Positions 125-38,999 of a stretch of 38,999 nt of DNA are shown in pieces; the stretch's first letter is position 1; every line of letters starts with the position of its first letter. The stretch is from a virus. The stretch lies in the UHGV virus genome UHGV-1350822. One strand, given 5' to 3'. The notes beneath the pieces were generated by a model that was not told the DNA's origin, did not search any database, and saw nothing but the letters and a program-made list of their open reading frames with translations. Position numbers and translations under genes: made by a program.

Positions 125-1420
125 ATGGCTACTTGGCAAGGAACAAATGGCGGATTGTTGGCTGGTATCGGTGGTGTCAACTCAAACGCTCCGAGCGTAA
201 ATGACATCGGCAATACGCTTCAGCTTATCAGGCAGAACAATGATATTGAGCGTTCAGGCGCTAACAATGTTGGGCTGACTGCTTTGCAAGGCCTTTCAGG
301 TATTGCGGGGGTGTTTCAGCAGGAAAAGCAGGCTCAGCGGCAGAAAGAATTTCAGCAGGCATACGCTAATGCTTATGCGTCTGGTGATCGCGGTGCTTTG
401 CGTCAGTTGGCTACTCAATATCCAGACCAGATTGAATCCGTTCGTAAAGGCATGGGATTCATTGATGAAGAGCAGCGTAATTCTATCGGCACCTTAGCGG
501 CTGGCGCACGCCTTGCGTCATCGTCTCCAGAAGCAATGCAATCATGGCTGCAAAACAACGCCAATGAGCTGGCGCGCGTCGGTGTTGACCCTAACAGCGT
601 TGCTCAGATGTATCAGCAGAACCCTTCAGGATTTGGTGAGTTTGTTGATCACCTTGGGATGGCTGCGCTTGGTCCGATTGATTACTTCAATGTTCAGGAC
701 AAGATGGCTGGTCGTGAAATTGACCGAGGCAGGCTGGCAGAGACAATCCGCAGCAATCAGGCAGGAGAAGCACTAACAGCTCGAGGTCAGGACATCCAGA
801 TACGTGGACAGAACATCAGCGCACAGAATGCTGCTCTTTCCCGAGAAATACAAAGAGCAGAATTACAAGAAAAGGCTCTGGACAGACAGATAGCCAGAGA
901 AAGCAATCAGTTAAAGCTTGAAGAGCTAAAACAGAAACAGGCAGATGTTCGGCAAAAGGCTGACATAGCCCGCGCTGACAGGCAGGCCGCCGCTCAGGGT
1001 GCAGTTGATACGTTCAGCACTGCGCTTGATTCTCTCAACGAGATAGAGCAAAGCCCCGGCCTTTCAAAAGCAGTAGGAATTCGCTCAGCGTTTCCGACAG
1101 TTCCTGGCTCTGATGCGGCTAACTTTGAAGCAAGGCTCGACACCTTTAAAGCTCAAACATTCCTTCCTATGGTGCAGTCCCTGAAGGGTATGGGCGCTCT
1201 TTCAGATGCTGAGGGTAAAAAATTATCCGATGCGGTTGGTGCCCTAAGCCCCAAAATGAGTGAAAAGGCTTTTCGTGACTCTATCGGAAAGATTAGAAAT
1301 CAGCTTGAAAGCAAGTTGAGCACTGTTAAAAAACAGTTTGATTATCAGGAGCCAGTACAGAATACGCCAGCGCAACAACCTACTACTGGCAGTAACTTTT
1401 CTTCACTATGGGGTGATTAA
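125..1420 (+). CDS. gp20-like DNA ejection/internal virion protein
   Basis: 431-aa ORF, AAGGGG RBS before ATG; position between gp7-like and gp16-like genes as in P22 (7-20-16); coiled-coil/Gln-rich composition. Confidence 0.7.
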
Positions 1421-3723
1421 TGGCTAAAGCATGGAAAGATGTTATCGCCTCTCCACAGTATCAGGCGTTAGCACCAGAACAAAAAGCGCAGGCTCAGGAG
1501 CAATACTTCAATGAAGTCGTGGCACCGCAAGCCGGAGAAAATGCAGAGCAGGCTAAGCAAGCTTTCTATGATGCCTATCCATTGCCTTCAATGCAGACAG
1601 AACAGCAGGAAGTAGGGCAATCTCCTGATACCATTCAGCAAGACAAATCACTTATGCAGCGTGCAGGAGAATGGCTAACAGGTGGGCAAAGCGTAGGTCA
1701 AATTGCCGAGCAGGCGGTAAGAGGATTTGTAAATATTCCTTTTGACGTTCTTCAGGGGGGGGCGAGTCTCATTAATGCCGCATCTCAGAGTTTTGATGGA
1801 CCAAAGATTCTTGATGAAGTATATAGACCAGTTAACCGGCCAACGGATCCGTATGCGCAAGCTGGAGAGTCAATAGGCGGTTATCTTGTTCCTGGAGCAG
1901 GAGTAGCTGGAAACATGGTCATTGGTTCTCTCGCTGACGCGGCGAATCAACGGGGTGATTTTGCCGAAAATGCCGCTATTAATGCCGGACTTAACATTGC
2001 TACGCATGGCCTGATAAATGGCGTTACCCGTGGTGTTCGTGGTGCATCAAATATAATTAGTGGCAATAAAACATCTGCACAGAGAGCGACCACTGCGCCA
2101 ACAGAAACATCACCATTCTCCGGTGATGCCGCTGCAGCAACAAATCCTGCGGTTCATGCCGCAGAGGCAAGAGTAGCACAAGGTGTACCAATGACGCCTG
2201 CGACGAGGAACCCAGAGGAAGTCGTTCGCACAGTAGCAGCACAAAAAAGGCCAAATCTCGCTTCATCGCTTGATGAACTAGATATCAATCCTCAGGCTGA
2301 AGTTCTGGAGTCTGCTGAAAGGCTTAATGTTGATTCATTACTCCCTTCACACTTTTCCGGGAACGAGCAATACAAGGCAGTTGAGCAAGCAATCAAGTCC
2401 CGTGCGGGTTCTGCTCTACAGGTGCAGGAAAATGAAGCAATCAGGCAGCTAGCACAGGGCGCGGGGGAGATAATTGATCGCGTTTCCGGTGCAAAAGATG
2501 CTCTTGGTATGAGCGACAAGTTTATTGATACGGTCAATGGAAGAATGTCTGCGCTGATGAAACGAAGCGACCAGCTTTATCGCAATGTTGAAAAGGCGAT
2601 GCCTGCAGGTGCAAAAATTGATGCACCATCAACAAGGTCAATGCTCAAACAGGTGGCAGAAGATCTTGGCGGGATGAAAAACCTTGACCCTATTGAAAAG
2701 AGAGTCTTTCGGGCAGTTAATCCAGGCAAGAACGGCGCATTAACTTATGCAAATCTCAATAAGCAACGACGACTTGTTGGTGATGCACTTCATAAGAATT
2801 CTGGACCATATAAAGATGCTGATCGCGCTGCTTTATCGAGGCTTTACGGTTCGCTCGCCGATGATCAAAAGGCGGCGCTGTCAGAGACAAATGCATTACG
2901 TGATTTTGAAGTTGCTCAGAGGCTTGTTCAGATGCGAAAAAGCATGGAAGAGCAAATGATTAATCTAACTGGCAGAACGCTGAACGGTGATGTTTCTCGC
3001 AAAGCAACTACAGCACTACAGGCAATGTCGAAAGGCGATGCCAAAGGATTTCGTGAATTGATGCAAAACACGCCGTCCAGGAAGCTAAGAACCGAGCTAC
3101 TGGGAACAGGTCTTCGGGATATGCTTTCGAACGGAAAACGTGGCGCTGATTTTAATCCTGCAGGGTTTGCTGACTGGTATCAAAACATGTTAGCAAACGG
3201 GCAGATGCGCAATCTTGCCCGACATTTACCAAAAGAGACTATGTCAGGTCTGAACGATGTATATAAGGTCGCAAAGGCTATCAAAGATGCAAAATCTTAC
3301 GAGATAACTACAGGAAGACTAAACGAGTTCGTCAAACGGTTTAATCGCGTCACTGCGGCAAATGAATTTGTTGCTAACCATGCCCAACGCATTGGCACTG
3401 CGGTTGGTTCAACTGTGTCAGGACCGTTCAGTGCAGTAGGTGCTGTTGCTGGGTCAGAAATTGGGGCAAAAGTCGCCAGCAAAATCAGGGCGATGGGCGG
3501 CGCTGAATCAATTGAATCTGCAGAAAAGCTAATTAGCTCACCAGAATTCCAGAAAGCAGCAAGGCTGGCAGTAAAACAAGCACCAGAAAGCATCGTTGAT
3601 ACAACTGTAAGACGCTCTTCTGCTTGGCGCTCGTTTTACAACTCACTTCCAGAATCAGATAAGAAAACCATATCAAGGCTAGGCATCATGTACTGGATGA
3701 ACAGTGATGATAACCAGAAGTAA
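1420..3723 (+). CDS. gp16-like DNA ejection protein
   Basis: 767-aa ORF, start overlaps upstream stop (TAATG); synteny with P22 gene 16. Confidence 0.7.
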
Positions 3724-3740
3724 CGGAAAGCAACGGATGG

Positions 3741-4034
3741 TTAGCTGCTGTCTTTTTTATATAGCTCCTTGAGCGTATCAAAGACAATTTTCTTAACCAT
3801 ATCAGATTGTTGTTCTGCCATACGCTCTGCATCGTCAATGTAAACAGATGCAGAGCTTTGTTTAGCCAATGATTCTTCAATCGCTGCAATTATCTCTGAG
3901 TTCAGCGACCTGTTATTCATCTTCGCACGCTGCTTAATTTTCGCGTGGAGTTCATGCGGAAGTCTCAAGTGAAACTGCGCCTCGTCGTATTTGCTGTACA
4001 TCCTTGATGCCTCACCAGTTGGGTGGAATGGCAT
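3741..4034 (-). CDS. mnt: Mnt-like ribbon-helix-helix repressor (Arc/MetJ family)
   Basis: C-terminal region ...NDAERMAEQQSDMVKKIVFDTLKELYKK matches P22 Mnt as recalled; N-terminal RHH segment; alternative start ATG at 4001. Confidence 0.8.
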   Translation of the reverse strand: MPFHPTGEASRMYSKYDEAQFHLRLPHELHAKIKQRAKMNNRSLNSEIIAAIEESLAKQSSASVYIDDAERMAEQQSDMVKKIVFDTLKELYKKDSS

Positions 4035-4122
4035 CGTAACCTACTGGATAAATACTCAATAGTACCATTTCGGTATGCAATCACATCATGGTTGCATCAT
4101 ATCATTCGTCTGGAGCAATGAA

Positions 4123-6321
4123 ATGTCAGATATCACCGCAAATGTTGTGGTAAGCATGCCTTCGCAACTCTTCACTATGGCGCGTTCTTTTAAAGCAGTT
4201 GCCAATGGTAAAATTTATATCGGTAAAATTGACGCTGACCCCGTAAATTCAGAAAACCAGATTCAGGTTTATATAGAGAACGAAGACGGCTCTCACGTTC
4301 CTGTTTCGCAACCAATAATCATTAACGCTGCCGGATATCCGGTATATAACGGACAGATTGCCAAGTTCGTAACTGTGCAAGGCCATTCCATGGCTGTATA
4401 TGATGCGTATGGTTCGCAGCAGTTCTATTTTCCCAATGTGCTGAAGTATGATCCCGATCAGTTTAGCCAGCGAATGGAGAATGTTCCTGACATCCATACC
4501 TTAATGAGCGAGCCTGCTGGGAATCACACATTAAATGTAATTGGATACGTACCAGGAACCAACTTTGGCGGCGGGCAGTTTTACTGGGATGCCAGCATGC
4601 CTAAATCTCAGCACAACGGTATCACCATATTTAGCCCCACAGTTCCGTGGGATGGTTCGTATGCTGAGCTCGCTGCTTTCCTTGCGGGAACTGGTGAGAG
4701 TGATGGTGGTGGCTCTGGTTGCTGGATCCGTTCGAATTGTGTGCTCGATGGCATACATACAGTTTGGGCTGGACATGATATTAACGGAGTGCATGATTCA
4801 ACGGCATCGGTTAACGCTTGTATATCAAAATTTGGTGGTGTTAGAGCAATACGTTTTAGCGCCGGTGAGATAAAGTTTAATTACCAAATCAGCCAGCAAT
4901 ATCATGACTCTGCAGGTGTTATACGTAAAACAGCAATTGTAATTAATGGTAAAAATAATTTATTTGTTTACGCAGATAATGATGTAAATATAAATACAGA
5001 TGGAAATGGTGAGGCTGAGCGTGTTTGCTTTGGTTTATTCAACTGCAAAAACTTTAAATTTAATGGTATAAAGTTAAACCAGTCATGCACAAATTTTTCA
5101 ACTGGACCTTCAGATACCACGTTTACCCCTCAAGAGAATTGGTTTGGTTTCGCACTTGAGGGGAGTAGTGGATCTATTAATGATATTGACGTATTGGCTG
5201 CAAGAATCTTTGTAATGGCAGATGCTGATGGTGACGGTGCTATACCAAATGAGGATATAACTCTTAGCAATGTAAGGACTGATTTGGTAACAAATTATAC
5301 ATTTTTCACTAAAAATCTTAATGGAATTGCTAAGATGATTGACTGCCAAACGTACAGAACAGGCAGAAAATGGCATACTTTTGGTGAAGATTTTGCGTGC
5401 TCAGCAAGAACAAAATATTTAATTGCAGAAAGAAATCACTTTATAAGCCCTATAAGTATTCAGTCTAGGATTACTCCTTGGGGGGTGACTGGTGGTGCAG
5501 TTATATCGAATAACATCAAAACAGGACAAGGAATATTCGTTGAGATAGGAGGTGAATCTAACGGTGTTGCAGCGCAGAATGTTGTTATTGATAGCAATAT
5601 AAGCATTGGGGATCAGAACGAGGATGGCACATTTTCATCTCATATTCTAATTATCTGGAATGGTAGTAATGACTACTCAACATCATTCAATGGAATTAAA
5701 ATAACAAAAAATACATTTAAAGGCGGTGGTTATGCCATAAATGATTATGCTGAAACTCAGATGTCTGCATATTGTTATGGACTTGTGATTGAAAACAACC
5801 AGTTTGATAGAACTGATGCCGTAAAAGTAACAATGCCCACATGGAGAAAATCTATATACCGAGGGAATAAGTCATATTTTGTTCATGGCAATACAGGTTG
5901 TGAAATTGGTGGTTATGCTCCAATTATTTCTGACAACGACTTTGATTCTACATATCTAGTATCAACTTCGGGTGTGCGTATCGATGAACCAGTTATTGAA
6001 AATAATGAGTTTAGTAACACTTTAAACTCACCAGTAAATCAACTTATTGACTGGCCTAGTTTTGCTGGAATGATATATAGAGGAAACAGATACACGTTTT
6101 CAATTAAGAAATTTAGAGATAACGCAGATATGGTTTCCTGTGGTTGGCGTTTTGCCGATGTGTCTGCTGGAATAGACACTGCTCCTACTACAACATACCC
6201 TGGGAAAGTGCTGATAAATATAGGCGATATGATTCACAATGCAGGTACTCCTGCATCAGGAACAAACTGGGCATGGTATGGTCTTGGAAACAATACATAT
6301 GGTAATCTTAATATAGCGTAG
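4123..6321 (+). CDS. Tailspike: P22-type N-terminal head-binding domain fused to a distinct beta-helix receptor-binding/depolymerase domain
   Basis: [11 protein letters not shown]...[11 protein letters not shown]...[13 protein letters not shown]...LKYDPDQ matches the P22 gp9 N-terminus; remainder is Asn/Gly-rich repeats typical of a right-handed beta-helix; GGAG RBS before ATG 4123 (ORF track start 4075 is probably too early). Confidence 0.85.
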
Positions 6322-6353: not shown

Positions 6354-7508
6354 TTACTTTTTAATGAATCTCCACTCAAAATTCTTAAAACAGATACAGG
6401 AAATAACGCTACACAGAGATGCAATAAAGGCTATCAAAATTGTGTAATTCACAGTAGACATGCTCGATAGGTTATAGAAATTATTTATTGTTCTCATTAC
6501 TATAGCCATGATAGGCAAATGCAGCAAATAAAGACTATAACTTGCCTCACCTAAATAAACTAATGATTTTATTTTAAATATTTTTGGTTTAGTTATAAGT
6601 ACCATTATAAATAGTAATGAAATGCATGCAAATCTGATTCGTCCATAGCTGTCTGCGGAAGAGCAGAAGATAACAAAAATAGCTATGAAAGAAATGAATG
6701 AGAATATCCAATATTTATCATCAATGTTAACATAAGATTTATTGAATATATATGCACCTAAGGCGCCAACTATAAAATATGGCCACAAAACAAATTCTGT
6801 CATAAAGTCTCTTGCCGCAAGTAACATTACTGCGGAAATGGCAAACATACCATATCTCTTGCTTGCGATGGCAATCGATAATAGAGGGAAAATTAAATAA
6901 AACCTCCATTCATACGGTAGAGTCCATATCACCGCATTTAATCCTGATGCGTTAAAAGAGCCAATGAAGATTTCTGTGCCCAAAAATCCAAACCCAAAAA
7001 AATTTAGGAAGCTTGAAAAATCAACAAAGTTAAGCCTTGCTGAACTGCCGGATAATATAATAGCTAAAATTGCCACCAAAAGCGCAGTAAGCATATATAG
7101 AGGAACGAGTCTTTTTATCCGAGCAACATAAAATTTATTCCAGTCAAATGTATTATTTCCTTTTATTAATTTATCAAAGAACAAAAATCCTGTAATGCAA
7201 AAGAAAATCTGTACACCGAAGCTACCCATATTCCCTGTGATGGAGTATTTTGTGAAGTCTATAAATATGGGCTGAACTCCATTGGTAATAATTGTATGAG
7301 CGCCGTGATTAATAAGAACGCTGAACGCAGCTATCCCACGCAATCCGTCTATAAAGAAATACCTGTTACTTGCAAAGTTGATGTGAGAAAAATAGTTATA
7401 TCGTGTCAATAGTGTAATACATAACACAACGGCTAAAAGAGACAAAAAATATAAATAAAGACTTTGCGCCTCAAAGATCATAATGCACACCATGAGATAA
7501 AATTTCAA
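6354..7508 (-). CDS. oac: Acyltransferase-3 family integral membrane protein, likely O-antigen acetyltransferase (lysogenic conversion)
   Basis: About 10 predicted TM helices; N-terminal R...H motif (RGIAAFSVLINH) and FFCITGFLFF motif typical of acyltransferase 3; very AT-rich; sits between tailspike and int as oac does in Sf6. ORF-track start is TTG at 7508; ATG at 7493 is more likely. Confidence 0.8.
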   Translation of the reverse strand: MKFYLMVCIMIFEAQSLYLYFLSLLAVVLCITLLTRYNYFSHINFASNRYFFIDGLRGIAAFSVLINHGAHTIITNGVQPIFIDFTKYSITGNMGSFGVQIFFCITGFLFFDKLIKGNNTFDWNKFYVARIKRLVPLYMLTALLVAILAIILSGSSARLNFVDFSSFLNFFGFGFLGTEIFIGSFNASGLNAVIWTLPYEWRFYLIFPLLSIAIASKRYGMFAISAVMLLAARDFMTEFVLWPYFIVGALGAYIFNKSYVNIDDKYWIFSFISFIAIFVIFCSSADSYGRIRFACISLLFIMVLITKPKIFKIKSLVYLGEASYSLYLLHLPIMAIVMRTINNFYNLSSMSTVNYTILIAFIASLCSVISCICFKNFEWRFIKK

Positions 7509-7726: not shown

Positions 7727-8884
7727 TCACTCCACCTTTTCATCAATCCAGTCAGCCCACCACTGCATCATTTCTCTGCGCTTATCTAGATACTGAGCAT
7801 GGTTGTAAATCCCGCGCACAGATCCGCCGTTGGCATGTGCAAGTTGCACTTCAATAGCGTCAGCAGGCCATTCGTGCTCGTTCATAATCGTGCTGAATTC
7901 ATGCCTGAATCCGTGACCGCTTTCCAGACCCTCATAGCCGATTTGTTTGATCACAAGCAATACCGCGTTCTCGCAGATTGGCTTTTTCTTATCGTTGCGC
8001 CCGGCAAAAACAAACTCTGATACTGGTTTAGTGATTGAGCTTAGCGTAGTGAGAAGTTCAACCACCTGGTCTGACATCGGGACAACATGAATTTTGCGTC
8101 CCTTCATCACACTGGCGTCGATGGTGATAATCCTGTTTTCAAAATCGACGTTCTTCCATTGCATGGAACGAAGCTCTTTCGTTCTTAGGGCTGTGTAGCG
8201 TAAAACTTTGGTCGCAATGAGCGATACGATACTTCCTGAAAATGTTGCAAGTGCTTTGTTGAATGCCGGGATCTGGTCGGCAGGTAAAAACGGGAAGTTC
8301 TTCTTGCGGTATCCCTTCATGGCGTCAGCAAGGTCAGGTGCCGGGTTATATTTAGCCCTACCAGTGACAATAGCGTAACGAAAAACCTCGCCGCATCTTC
8401 TGCGGGCTTTGTTGGCTCGCTCCATTGCACCGCGATCTTCAAATCTGCGGATTACTTCCAGCAGTTGCATCGGCTCAATATCCTGAATCTCAAGACCGCC
8501 GATGATGGGTAAAATGTCGTCATCAAACATTTTGGCAAGTTCAGTTGCATAGCCTACTGACCAGACTTGCTTCTTGTGCTCGTACCATTCCTTGTAAATC
8601 GCACTAAATGAATTGTTGCTAGACGAAGACTTTTTCGCCTTTACCGGATCGATGCCAACCGAGATGTCTTTCCTCGCAGTCCATGCCTTATCCCTTGCTT
8701 CCTGCAAAGTCATAAGCGGATATTTTCCGACAGTCAGGATTTTCTCCTTACCGTCAATCTTGTAGCGAAGCTGCCATACCTTTTTCCCTGATACAGGGAC
8801 ATAAAGGTACAGGCCATTACCATCGAGTAGGCGGTATGGTTTTTCTTTCGGCTTTGCTGCTTCAATCTGCTTAACGGTGAGCAT
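7727..8884 (-). CDS. int: Tyrosine integrase, P4/IntS-type (DUF4102 arm-binding N-domain plus catalytic domain)
   Basis: MLTVKQIEAAKPKEKPYRLLDGNGLYLYV N-domain; catalytic residues in HGFRHEF...LAH...Y; ORF track extends to GTG 8920 but ATG 8884 matches the usual IntS-type N-terminus. Confidence 0.9.
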   Translation of the reverse strand: MLTVKQIEAAKPKEKPYRLLDGNGLYLYVPVSGKKVWQLRYKIDGKEKILTVGKYPLMTLQEARDKAWTARKDISVGIDPVKAKKSSSSNNSFSAIYKEWYEHKKQVWSVGYATELAKMFDDDILPIIGGLEIQDIEPMQLLEVIRRFEDRGAMERANKARRRCGEVFRYAIVTGRAKYNPAPDLADAMKGYRKKNFPFLPADQIPAFNKALATFSGSIVSLIATKVLRYTALRTKELRSMQWKNVDFENRIITIDASVMKGRKIHVVPMSDQVVELLTTLSSITKPVSEFVFAGRNDKKKPICENAVLLVIKQIGYEGLESGHGFRHEFSTIMNEHEWPADAIEVQLAHANGGSVRGIYNHAQYLDKRREMMQWWADWIDEKVE

Positions 8885-9045
8885 GGGTAAAAATCCGGTG
8901 GGTAAAATTATTTTATCCACTTTTTACCCGTCATGGAGTGCGGCTGTCAACGATCTGACGCGAACCATGACGAACCGTGAATATACGTAAGGCTTGATAT
9001 TCAGGGGATTTTGCGGACTGGTACGGATGGGAGCGAACTGATAAA

Positions 9046-22586: not shown

Positions 22587-22753
22587 TTGACCAAAATCGA
22601 AGTTACGAACAAGAAAGCGTCGAGCGAGCTTTAACGTGCGCTAACTGCGGTCAGAAGCTGCATGTGCTGGAAGTTCACATGTGTGAGCACTGCTGCGCAG
22701 AACTGATGAGCGATCCGAACAGCTCAATGTACGAGGAAGAAGACGATGAATGA
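22583..22753 (+). CDS. ninF: NinF
   Basis: GTG start; translation [48 protein letters not shown] matches lambda NinF; not in the ORF track (under 60 aa). Confidence 0.7.
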
Positions 22754-23468
22754 GTTAATAAATGGCAATTCCATCAAAATGACAAGCATTGAAATCGCTG
22801 AGTTGGTGGGAAGTCGTCATGACAAGGTGAAACAATCTATTGAACGACTGGCGGCTCGAGGTGTGATCCGAAATCCCCCAATGGTGGTTTTCGAAAAAAT
22901 CAATAACTTAGGATTACTTCGTGGCGTAGAGGCTTACGTTTTTGAGGGCGAACAAGGTAAGCGAGACAGCATTATTGTCGTCGCTCAGTTGTCGCCGGAA
23001 TTCACCGCTCGTCTTGTTGACCGTTGGCGAGAGCTTGAGGAAACTGCGGTTAATATCCCCAAAACGCTACCAGAAGCGTTGCGCCTTGCTGCTGATCTTG
23101 CTGAGCAGAAAATGCAACTGGAAAACCAGCTCGCAATTGCCGCACCTAAAGTTGAGTTTGCCGATCGCGTTGGCGAGGCCAGCGGAATTTTGATTGGAAA
23201 CTTTGCAAAGGTTGTTGGAATTGGTCCAAACAAACTGTTTGCGTGGATGCGCGATCACAAAATCCTTATTGCTTCAGGTTCCCGGCGAAATGTGCCAATG
23301 CAGGAATATATGGATCGCGGCTATTTCACAGTGAAAGAAACAGCGGTCAACACAAATCACGGAATACAGATATCGTTCACCACAAAAATCACCGGGCGTG
23401 GTCAACAGTGGCTGACCAGAAAGCTGCACGATAACGGAATGCTGAAAGTAACAGGGGAGGCTGCTTAA
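22746..23468 (+). CDS. roi: Roi-like / Rha-KilAC antirepressor-family DNA-binding protein
   Basis: 240-aa protein; N-terminal Rha-like region and C-terminal KilA-C-like domain; nin-region position as for HK022 roi (recalled). Confidence 0.6.
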   Translation: MNELINGNSIKMTSIEIAELVGSRHDKVKQSIERLAARGVIRNPPMVVFEKINNLGLLRGVEAYVFEGEQGKRDSIIVVAQLSPEFTARLVDRWRELEETAVNIPKTLPEALRLAADLAEQKMQLENQLAIAAPKVEFADRVGEASGILIGNFAKVVGIGPNKLFAWMRDHKILIASGSRRNVPMQEYMDRGYFTVKETAVNTNHGIQISFTTKITGRGQQWLTRKLHDNGMLKVTGEAA

Positions 23469-27017: not shown

Positions 27018-27191
27018 TAGCGATAATTTTACTCATCATCCTTCACATCTGGCTCTGTAGACAGGGTGGTGATCACTTCTGGAGTGAATCCAGATTAAAC
27101 ATCTCATTGCTGATGCTTGAAGTTGAGCATCTGGCGCGCGGTAAGGGGCTGCGTTGAGATAAGAGCCAGTTCATTACAAATACCAGGATTT

Positions 27192-27216
27192 AGCCTCGCA
27201 TTCGCGGGGCTTTTTA
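27192..27216 (+). terminator. Rho-independent terminator downstream of the lysis cassette
   Basis: Stem AGCCTCGC/GCGGGGCT (one G-U pair) with ATTC loop, followed by TTTTT. Confidence 0.6.
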
Positions 27217-27359
27217 TATCTGAATTTCACAGCGCATCTCACGCGCATATTAACGAGAGCCTTTCAGTAAGCGAGCCTGAGAAATGCCGTTATAGGTGGC
27301 GACCTCTCTCGGGCGGCTTTTCTGTGAGACAGGCTCACTTTCTAAAAGGTAAAGACGCT

Positions 27360-27878
27360 ATGAATCATCAATTGGCTAATCTCGATTTCCGGGACATGGT
27401 GGTTGTTTCTGGTGATCGCGTGATCACAACCTCCCGCAAGGTAGCAGCTTACTTCGACAAGCAGCATCACCACATCATTCAGAAAATCGAAAAGCTAGAC
27501 TGTTCGGATGAATTTCTAACCAGCAACTTTTCGCGGGTTACCTATGAACACAAGGGTAATCAGTATGTTGAATATGAAATTTCCAAAGACGGCGCGATGT
27601 ACATCATCATGTCGTTTACCGGCAAAAAAGCTGCCGCCATCAAAGAGGCGTTTATCAAAGCATTTAATTGGATGCGTGACAGGCTGATGGAGATGGCTCA
27701 CTCATACCAAAGAGAGCACAACGAGTTAATGCTGGAGTTCATGAAGGAAAAGGATGTTGCCAGTATGTCAGGACGCTTGCTGAACCGCTGGGGCAGGATC
27801 AAAAAACCGCAACTCATAGCAAGAATCGAAAGGCTTGAGCAGCAGGCGCAAATATCGATCCCCGGACTGCCAAAGTGA
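27360..27878 (+). CDS. rha: Rha-family phage regulatory protein
   Basis: 172 aa from ATG 27360; N-terminal Rha signature (...VVVSGDRVITTSRKVAAYFDKQHHHIIQKIEKL...); same position as P22 rha between lysis and packaging genes; the ORF-track N-terminal extension is unlikely. Confidence 0.75.
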   Translation: MNHQLANLDFRDMVVVSGDRVITTSRKVAAYFDKQHHHIIQKIEKLDCSDEFLTSNFSRVTYEHKGNQYVEYEISKDGAMYIIMSFTGKKAAAIKEAFIKAFNWMRDRLMEMAHSYQREHNELMLEFMKEKDVASMSGRLLNRWGRIKKPQLIARIERLEQQAQISIPGLPK

Positions 27879-38344: not shown

Positions 38345-38999
38345 ATGTTATATGCATTTAAGCTGGGCAGAAAACTGCGCGGCGAGGAACCTTATTGCCC
38401 TGAAAAAGGCGGGAAAGGTGGCAGCTCTGATAAAAGCGCAAAGTATGCAGCAGAAGCTCAGAAGTATGCCGCAGACCTGCAAAATCAGCAGTGGCAGACG
38501 ATCATGAAAAACCTTGCTCCGTTCACGCCGCTTGCGGAGCAGTATGTTAACCAGTTGCAGAATCTTTCCAGTTTAGAAGGTCAGGGGCAGGCACTTAATC
38601 AGTATTACAACTCTCAGCAGTATAAAGACCTTGCAGGTCAGGCGCGTTACCAGAGTCTTGCTGCTGCGGAGGCGACTGGCGGACTTGGTTCGACAGCCAC
38701 AAGCAATCAACTGGCTACGATTGCTCCGACTCTCGGTCAGTCGTGGTTATCAAACCAGATGAGCAATTACAACAATCTGGCAAACGTTGGGCTTGGTGCT
38801 CTGCAAGGTCAGGCAAACGCCGGGCAGACGTACGCCAACAACATGAGCAGCATTGCACAGCAAAGCGCAGCTCTTGCCGCTGCTAATGCCAACAAACCAT
38901 CAGGTCTTCAGACAGCAATTAGCGGTGGAGCTTCAGGGGCTATGACTGGCGCTGCTCTTGGCTCTATTGTTCCCGGACTGGGGCCTGGATTATGTGGGG
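38345..38999 (+). CDS. gp7-like ejection protein, N-terminal part (continues at 1..115 across the circular junction)
   Basis: ORF runs to the window end in frame with 1..115; the last ~74 nt duplicate the window start. Confidence 0.7.
   Translation, partial: MLYAFKLGRKLRGEEPYCPEKGGKGGSSDKSAKYAAEAQKYAADLQNQQWQTIMKNLAPFTPLAEQYVNQLQNLSSLEGQGQALNQYYNSQQYKDLAGQARYQSLAAAEATGGLGSTATSNQLATIAPTLGQSWLSNQMSNYNNLANVGLGALQGQANAGQTYANNMSSIAQQSAALAAANANKPSGLQTAISGGASGAMTGAALGSIVPGLGPGLCG

Follow-up and report, generated by a model that had tools for sequence, protein, structure and literature searches.

The immI region of phage P22 is a regulatory circuit found in textbooks, and Mnt and Arc are classic models for how proteins recognize DNA. 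In P22 lysogens, immunity toward superinfecting P22 is an established role of Mnt. The region was named 'ant moron' by Villafane et al., according to whom it comprises only mnt and one unknown gene in ST64T, ST104 and Para1 and may influence tailspike expression (Villafane et al., 2008; PMC2629481). Both the immI region and the mnt-only arrangement, the latter for ST64T, ST104 and phage L, have been described (PMC2629481, PMC8022706). What purpose Mnt has where ant is missing is a question that was raised earlier for phage L.

Here, we analyse a window of 38,999 nt, the virus genome UHGV-1350822. It is the complete, circularly permuted genome of a P22-like phage (Lederbergvirus). Since the genome is complete and its two ends share an overlap of ~75 nt, the absence of arc, ant and sieA reported below applies genome-wide. 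The closest sequenced phages are Shigella phage Sf101, with 96% identity across gene 16, mnt and the 5' end of the tailspike gene, and coliphage IME10. The closest match in E. coli, strain E89, is a degraded prophage.

The mnt locus, its relatives and the missing immI partners

The genes for a gene 20-type ejection protein (125-1420) and a gene 16-type ejection/injection protein (1420-3723) are located on the plus strand, the latter assigned from the list of open reading frames and its 96% identity to the transglycosylase/gp13 region of Sf101. Gene 16 is the final late-operon gene ahead of the mnt module. It is convergent with the mnt homologue (3741-4001, minus strand, 86 aa), and the two stop codons are 17 bp apart. 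On the other side, 121 bp separate the mnt start from the tailspike ATG at 4123. The tailspike gene, assigned from the annotation of relatives, covers 4112-6321 on the plus strand including its ribosome-binding site GGAG (4112-4115). The minus-strand genes for an acyltransferase (6354-7508) and an integrase (7727-8920) follow. The tailspike has a P22-type head-binding N-terminal domain, and its relatives are annotated as tailspike or head-binding domain proteins. A start at 4075 was rejected for it, as the conserved N-terminus MSDITANVV begins at 4123. An earlier note on this DNA had described mnt as an orphan repressor without arc, ant and sieA partners and as divergent from the tailspike gene. 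Both statements hold, the first by the list of open reading frames, in which nothing but mnt separates gene 16 from the tailspike gene, and by the searches described below, the second by the opposite strands of the two genes.

The 86 aa protein belongs to the Mnt repressor family. Pfam detected in the 97 aa open reading frame the Arc ribbon-helix-helix (RHH) domain (PF03869, 1e-14, residues 18-60) and Repressor_Mnt, the C-terminal coiled-coil tetramerisation domain (PF11423, 3.3e-14, profile positions 3-28 of 28). The best matches among solved structures are P22 Mnt (1MNT, 3e-19) and the Mnt tetramerisation domain (1QEY, 1.7e-8), and 48.8% of the residues are identical to P22 Mnt. The N-terminal RHH domain carries the recognition strand DEAQFHLRLP, and the C-terminus forms the Mnt tetramerisation helix. 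The 97 aa reading frame itself (3741-4034, start at 4034) is too long. The start of mnt was placed at 4001, because PGAP takes this second ATG in most relatives and because the upstream ATG of phage Gally, read directly from the sequence, is out of frame with mnt. An antitoxin-like role, suggested by weak Pfam matches to HicB and FitA, was dropped, since the C-terminal domain is specific for Mnt and no toxin gene adjoins.

Strong purifying selection acts on the DNA-binding domain. Comparison of this allele with those of JEP4, Buttiauxella, Serratia and Citrobacter over the 45 codons of the domain yielded dN values of 0.08-0.17, while dS exceeded 1.4 or was not computable due to saturated synonymous sites; dN/dS of the RHH domain is ~0.05. 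Among 31 close mnt alleles, pN/pS amounts to 0.19. The reading frame is truncated in 2 of 83 loci and intact in all others. Hardly any variation was seen in the recognition strand. The C-terminal helix, in contrast, is a mosaic of which at least five variants exist. This means, mnt is not a decaying remnant, and since it is under selection, it is fair to say that it was retained for a reason.

The mnt-only layout is a known and widespread variant of the P22 ant moron, and the present genome is a further member with a minimal version. Of 5426 complete E. coli genomes, 277 (~5%) contain the segment from mnt to the tailspike start. In addition, the module is present in Sf101, in IME10 and, as a variant, in JEP4 and VSe13. 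In the Salmonella phages L, ST64T, ST104, SE1 and ST160 and in the E. coli phage Gally, mnt is likewise located beside the tailspike gene and has a different allele. The layout can, therefore, not be regarded as a peculiarity of this genome. In databases, the Sf101 homologue gp14 bears the label 'chromosome segregation ATPase' or 'partition protein ATPase'; it is not discussed in the Sf101 paper. The IME10 copy is unannotated.

Searches for the immI partners were negative. No match was obtained anywhere in the genome, even at E<=5, when P22 Arc, Ant and SieA, the Ant proteins of CUS-3 and Kapi1, Kapi1 Arc as well as KilA and Rha of JEP4 were used as tblastn queries. An RHH HMM built from 179 Arc/Mnt domains and applied to 742 six-frame open reading frames recognized mnt as sole match (6e-25; runner-up 0.11). 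Both an arc gene divergent from mnt and an antirepressor gene downstream of Pant are absent. Two other genes deserve mention. Roi (240 aa, 22746-23468), encoded in the nin region, has an ANT/KilAC domain (Pfam, 7.7e-33) and shares 92% identity with its counterparts in HK629 and in Stx phages; such Roi proteins are common among lambdoid and Stx phages. A Rha-family gene (27117-27878; Phage_pRha, 2e-23) is located after the lysis genes. Neither was judged to be an immI-type Ant, and both were judged to be unrelated to Mnt. Hence, the claim that mnt has no partners anywhere is correct for arc, an immI-type ant and sieA, but too broad in view of the ANT-domain protein Roi and the Rha-family gene. 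Correspondingly, the search for a cryptic arc or ant revealed neither arc nor an immI ant; it did reveal the ANT domain of Roi, which is an ordinary gene of the lambdoid nin region.

To look at related genomes, the 80 best IMG/VR loci, 80 loci from species-representative genomes and GenBank phages were sampled. In the loci with the same recognition strand, mnt lies 121-136 bp from the tailspike ATG, or a homing-endonuclease insertion alone stands between them. In 82 of 82 sampled loci with the strand DEAQFHLRL and in all loci of the L/Gally class, mnt was found beside the tailspike gene and never beside arc or ant. Mnt proteins linked to ant carry other recognition strands. In JEP4-like phages, an arc-like gene, Rha, KilA and a divergent regulator make up a complete extra antirepressor module. 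These phages also keep mnt beside the tailspike gene and have the operator motif described below only there. Thus, the module seems to be tied to the tailspike junction.

Predicted operator, promoters and hairpin A

Mnt probably binds the dyad GTACC-ATTTC-GGTAT (predicted operator GTACCATTTCGGTAT, 4062-4076), as judged from its position, its uniqueness and its co-variation with the protein. The dyad is 2 nt apart from the -35 box of the predicted mnt promoter Pmnt, with its centre at about -43, and covers approximately +2 to +16 of the former Pant. In an alignment with the P22 annotation, this position equals that of the annotated Omnt. The motif TACC-N5-GGTA occurs a single time in the 39-kb genome, compared to 0.07 occurrences expected by chance, and just two weak matches with two to three mismatches, both inside genes, were found elsewhere in it. 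Exactly one occurrence was observed in 76 of the 96 related loci searched, among them the whole Sf101 genome, and the listed sites are at the expected position. Of 81 loci that share the recognition strand, 79 have an intact left arm GTACC and 72 an intact right arm GGTA; in the remaining nine, the GG of the right arm is substituted. Mnt bound at this place would sit on the path into the tailspike gene.

When the mnt upstream regions were aligned in mnt orientation, three classes became apparent, and in each of them a dyad is located 1-2 nt upstream of the -35 box of the mnt promoter, at the annotated place of Omnt. P22, epsilon34 and UPF_BP1 combine the recognition strand DDPHFNFRMP with the dyad GGTCCAC-C-GTGGACC. 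Phages L and Gally have the strand DDPQFNLRLP and the dyad AGACCAC-N-GTGGTCT. The present genome, Sf101, JEP4, VSe13 and their relatives carry DEAQFHLRL(P/T) together with GTACC-N5-GGTA(T/C). This means, dyad and recognition strand change together. The CC/GG core would pair with the invariant arginine, and the two outer positions appear to vary with residues 6 and 8.

Pmnt is predicted on the minus strand (4033-4059) with the -35 box TTGAGT (4059-4054), a 15-nt spacer and the -10 box TACGAT (4038-4033). Positionally, it is homologous to Pmnt of P22 (TTGAGA-17-TATCAT), and the -10 box reads TAnGAT in every class. We infer its placement from this homology; the 15-nt spacer is suboptimal, and a consensus scan did not call Pmnt. 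In the opposite direction, ATGGCA and TAAATA separated by 15 nt (4028-4054, plus strand) correspond to the annotated Pant of P22 (TTGACA-17-TATATT). With four of six and three of six matches to the consensus, a spacer of 15 nt and no T at -7, this remnant is poor, and the Pant hexamers are degenerate in all mnt-only classes. The consensus scan called no plus-strand promoter at the former Pant. Its only result in the region was a 9/12 match on the minus strand over the tailspike ATG which is not conserved in the class with a 135-bp intergenic region. A terminator scan of the region found none. The comparison with Omnt/Pant of P22 that the earlier note had recommended, therefore, had a divided outcome: An operator-like dyad is present at the place of Omnt, and Pant has decayed.

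An inverted-repeat scan discovered a further element, hairpin A (4006-4035), with the outer arms GATGCC-N18-GGCATC and an inner stem. Folding is predicted for the plus strand. With one arm, the element reaches into the predicted -10 box of Pmnt; its other arm lies immediately next to the ribosome-binding site of mnt. All tailspike-proximal mnt modules, those of the L and Gally types among them, have retained the outer arms, and the inner sequence varies. Changes of the inner stem in the L/Gally type keep the pairing; single substitutions favour neither strand consistently. P22 lacks hairpin A. This conserved element falls outside the working model for Mnt presented below.

Proposed function and alternative explanations

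The locus may well be a working, tailspike-proximal, mnt-only ant moron whose repressor acts on the dyad 4062-4076, a reading which we put forward tentatively. That Mnt binds the dyad, regulates itself and affects the tailspike gene at all is inferred from sequence comparison. According to this model, the 86 aa protein would act as a tetrameric RHH repressor of the Mnt family and bind one dyad of 15-17 bp (4062-4076) just upstream of the -35 box of its own leftward promoter. As this genome has neither arc nor ant, only a decayed Pant and no second copy of the dyad, cis effects would be limited to Pmnt and to RNA polymerase moving rightward into the tailspike gene, 47 bp away. This rightward traffic could originate from weak residual initiation or from read-through of the late operon. 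Our best guess is that Mnt keeps the mnt-tailspike junction quiet in the lysogen and that, during lytic growth, antisense late transcription across mnt silences mnt.

A meaningful effect of Mnt on tailspike expression is possible, but we regard it as doubtful. Antiterminated late transcription complexes may ignore a bound repressor. Because the Pant remnant is poor, a model in which Mnt represses a tailspike promoter is weakly supported by the sequence. Data on phage Gally are relevant here. A lysogen with an mnt deletion is viable, and mnt RNA is at background level in LB (PMC9928086). In macrophages, mnt RNA increases 40-fold and tailspike RNA ~21-fold, while RNA of the gene 16 homologue remains flat and late genes fall (PMC9928086). 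The rise of mnt and tailspike RNAs alongside a flat gene 16 homologue indicates that transcription of the junction can be independent of the late operon. However, the tailspike RNA of Gally could be due to read-through from an upstream moron gene that is absent from this genome, and the joint increase of both RNAs is contrary to simple repression.

A more far-reaching version of the model holds that tailspike-proximal Mnt proteins (DEAQFHLRL, DDPQFNLRL) form a separate lineage that gates the tailspike gene, the last late gene. We consider this version unlikely. If it were true, Mnt on its co-evolving operator, with a conserved hairpin on either side, would stop or weaken the passage of polymerase into the tailspike gene in the lysogen. 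Incoming phages of the same specificity might be blocked, too, resulting in tailless particles. Such gating would explain why specificities diversify without ant, why the module persists in JEP4-like phages next to their complete antirepressor module and why it survives in degraded prophages.

Alternatively, Mnt might act in trans and provide immunity by repressing the ant promoter of superinfecting phages that share its operator, which corresponds to the role as a decoy against ant-carrying phages envisaged in the earlier note. This is in line with the role of Mnt in P22 lysogens, with the selection acting on the protein and its specificity, and with the diversification of Mnt specificities as known from immunity systems. 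The superinfecting phages required for it were, however, not encountered: No ant-carrying phage with a matching operator is among the loci sampled, where neither the 82 DEAQFHLRL loci nor any locus of the L/Gally class has mnt beside arc or ant. Furthermore, the antirepressor module of JEP4-like phages lacks an operator of the DEAQFHLRL class, and lysogens of phage L are reportedly inducible by P22 Ant in spite of their L-type Mnt. Within the loci sampled, these findings speak against the decoy proposal, and we regard trans-acting immunity as quite improbable.

Still more improbable is that mnt is an evolutionary leftover, an autoregulated repressor-operator pair which survived the deletion of arc and ant and regulates only itself. 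The authors of the phage L genome raised this possibility, and the decayed Pant is compatible with it. So are the observations that the mnt deletion of Gally had no detected phenotype and that mnt RNA, at background in LB in Gally, was undetected in Kapi1. A functionless gene, though, would not have remained intact for such a time. With a dN/dS of ~0.05 and saturated synonymous sites across Escherichia, Citrobacter, Buttiauxella and Serratia relatives, with retained operator arms, with its presence in 277 of 5426 E. coli genomes and with its maintenance even beside a separate complete antirepressor module, mnt does not behave like a leftover.

The next alternative concerns the binding site. 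The earlier note had pointed to the inverted repeat ATGCAA-N11-TTGCAT as a candidate site for Mnt, and this repeat stands at 4075-4097 exactly as claimed. It is a good palindrome near mnt and is conserved within the class with 121-bp intergenic regions. Nevertheless, it is very improbable that it is the Mnt operator. Relatives with an intergenic region of 135 bp have the same Mnt recognition strand but an unrelated sequence at the place of the repeat, where a different hairpin replaces it. The half-sites of the repeat are spaced by 17 bp, those of Omnt in P22 by ~10 bp. Substitutions in a single arm are tolerated only as G-U wobbles of the plus strand, and phages with their Mnt operator at another place have a positionally equivalent hairpin ahead of the tailspike gene.

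The repeat is instead a probable stem-loop of the tailspike mRNA leader (plus strand), as suggested by substitutions that keep plus-strand pairing and by equivalent hairpins in other phages. The stem would comprise 9 bp including one U-G pair (T/G in the DNA), with a loop of 5 nt, and end 14 nt before the ribosome-binding site. Inverted repeats of 6 bp are not significant alone: Four are found in these 160 bp, and 0.47 occurrences of the pattern ATGCAA-N11-TTGCAT are expected per genome-length window if one mismatch is allowed. The reality of the one at 4075-4097 rests on comparative data only. In the 121-bp class, all substitutions in the arms preserve plus-strand pairing (U-G to U-A, U-G to C-G, C-G to U-G), and the wobble pairs would become A-C mismatches on the minus strand. 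Across 18 distinct variants, pairing is kept in 98.1% of cells; one change is double and compensatory (G-C to U-A in one Escherichia sp. relative), and six one-sided changes retain pairing by a wobble. These figures have low power, as 5 of 500 shuffles reached the observed pairing and 62 of 500 the covariation count. The remaining leader classes have another hairpin (CCGUAGC-CAU-GCUGCGG and variants) at an equal distance from the ribosome-binding site; two of its six pairs covary. Analogous leader hairpins are present in P22, epsilon34, UPF_BP1, CUS-3, L and Gally, and in the first four they follow the ant terminator. An Rfam search of 3500-4400 returned chance matches alone, all far below the gathering scores, and whole-region RNA folding was no more stable than that of shuffled sequences on either strand (z = -0.75 and -0.48). 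For the role of the leader hairpin, 5' protection of the mRNA, processing or translation control are guesses.

Finally, that Mnt controls a distant antirepressor-like gene, Roi or the Rha-family gene, is scarcely credible despite the ANT/KilAC and Phage_pRha domains of their products, as neither gene has an operator-like site nearby, the Roi start codon, read from the sequence, abuts the end of the preceding nin open reading frame and leaves no space for an own promoter, Roi is a common gene in lambdoid and Stx phages, and Sf101 has the same mnt module without Roi.

Regardless of its role, a conserved Mnt with a matched operator and without an antirepressor is present in ~5% of the complete E. 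coli genomes and in many Salmonella phages. The three pairs of recognition strand and operator would constitute a small natural recognition code for the Mnt beta strand, and the mapped layout of promoters, operator and hairpins provides exact sites for experiments. If Mnt should regulate itself only, this would be an ordinary finding. The label 'partition protein ATPase' on many database entries needs to be corrected.

Comparison with known systems

With immI of P22, the locus shares the protein family and its two-domain architecture, the location of mnt, flanked by gene 16 and the tailspike gene, and its leftward orientation. Both have a core dyad nnCC-N5-GGnn 1-2 nt upstream of the -35 box of Pmnt and a probable hairpin in the tailspike leader downstream. 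In contrast to P22, this genome lacks arc, ant, sar and sieA, and its Pant hexamers have decayed. The recognition residues are Q/H/R instead of H/N/R, and the predicted operator reads GTACC...GGTAT instead of GGTCCAC...GTGGACC. Hairpin A is an extra element that is missing in P22.

P22 Arc has the same RHH fold and also recognizes DNA via an N-terminal beta strand. However, it is a 53 aa dimer without the C-terminal tetramerisation helix of Mnt, which the protein described here possesses (PF11423, 1QEY).

ST64T, ST104, L, SE1, ST160 and Gally resemble the present genome: A lone mnt is divergent from the tailspike gene, there at a distance of ~135 bp, the dyad is intact, and a promoter resembling Pmnt is present along with hairpin A and the probable leader hairpin. 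They differ by the recognition strand DDPQFNLRLP and the operator AGACCAC-N-GTGGTCT. In addition, gene 16 and mnt are separated by one or two small extra genes in the ST64T/L/Gally type, whereas only mnt is found here. The most similar loci are those of Sf101 (gp14) and IME10: Their Mnt proteins are 98-99% identical and their intergenic regions are the same, and the differences lie in the receptor-binding domains of the tailspikes and in other mosaic regions.

The tailspike-proximal mnt module

The conserved inverted repeat GATGCC-N18-GGCATC is located at window positions 4006-4035, and its inner stem is variable. It is confined to tailspike-proximal mnt modules, whereas P22 lacks it. In the JEP4-like phages (JEP4 itself, L005, and loci L158-L175), the ant moron contains a second repressor module besides the tailspike-proximal mnt; this distal module is composed of a regulator, an arc-like gene, Rha and KilA. 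Within mnt, the N-terminal domain is retained, whereas the C-terminal helix has been exchanged and exists in at least five variants.

The mnt-tailspike pair is also found in a degraded prophage of E. coli E89 (L012; NZ_CP121157, 3700510-3705835), which adjoins tRNA-Thr. The late operon is wholly gone from this remnant. Both mnt and the tailspike gene are preserved, the former intact and the latter at full length; otherwise, only an integrase, some small genes and gtrABC-type genes are left.

Mnt homologues are labelled "partition protein ATPase" or "chromosome segregation ATPase" in Sf101 (gp14; L001/L013) and in many RefSeq phage records, and PHROG 795 bears the same ATPase-type label. For an 86-aa ribbon-helix-helix repressor, this label appears to be a misannotation spread by propagation.

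The tailspike leader and insertions behind it

In P22 (L004), the tailspike-leader element AAAATTCACCGTAGCCA(C/T)GCT is present in two copies (about 1210-1196 and 1106-1090, reading the minus strand of this locus). One copy lies directly 3' of the ant terminator and the other just 5' of gene 9. This twofold element looks like a duplicated "boundary sequence".

In several loci, an HNH-type homing endonuclease gene is inserted in the tailspike gene, at 2330-2869 in L102 and at 2327-2869 in L110, and likewise in L019, L138, L117, L123, L125, L129 and Kapi1 (L015). The insertion point is directly 3' of the first five tailspike codons: The old leader and the MSDIT codons are kept, and a new tailspike start is found downstream of the insertion. 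Two distinct kinds of insertion, of 654 bp and 728 bp, can be distinguished.

Window ends, Roi-type gene and Rha-family gene

The sequence at positions 1-75 of the window recurs at 38925-38999, an overlap of about 75 nt in which mismatches are confined to the last ~20 nt. This is consistent with a circular assembly whose end is of low quality.

In the nin region, the plus strand (22746-23468) encodes a Roi-type protein in which Pfam identifies an ANT/KilAC domain; there is also a weak Rha N-terminal match. It shares 92% identity with Roi of HK629 and Stx phages. Roi-type proteins are frequently labelled "anti-repressor" in databases. Sf101 has no Roi-type gene.

A Rha-family gene with Phage_pRha and ORF11CD3 domains (27117-27878, plus strand) is located downstream of the lysis genes. 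Since its domains start only at residue 104, the listed TTG start probably lies too far upstream. The gene occupies the place of P22 rha.
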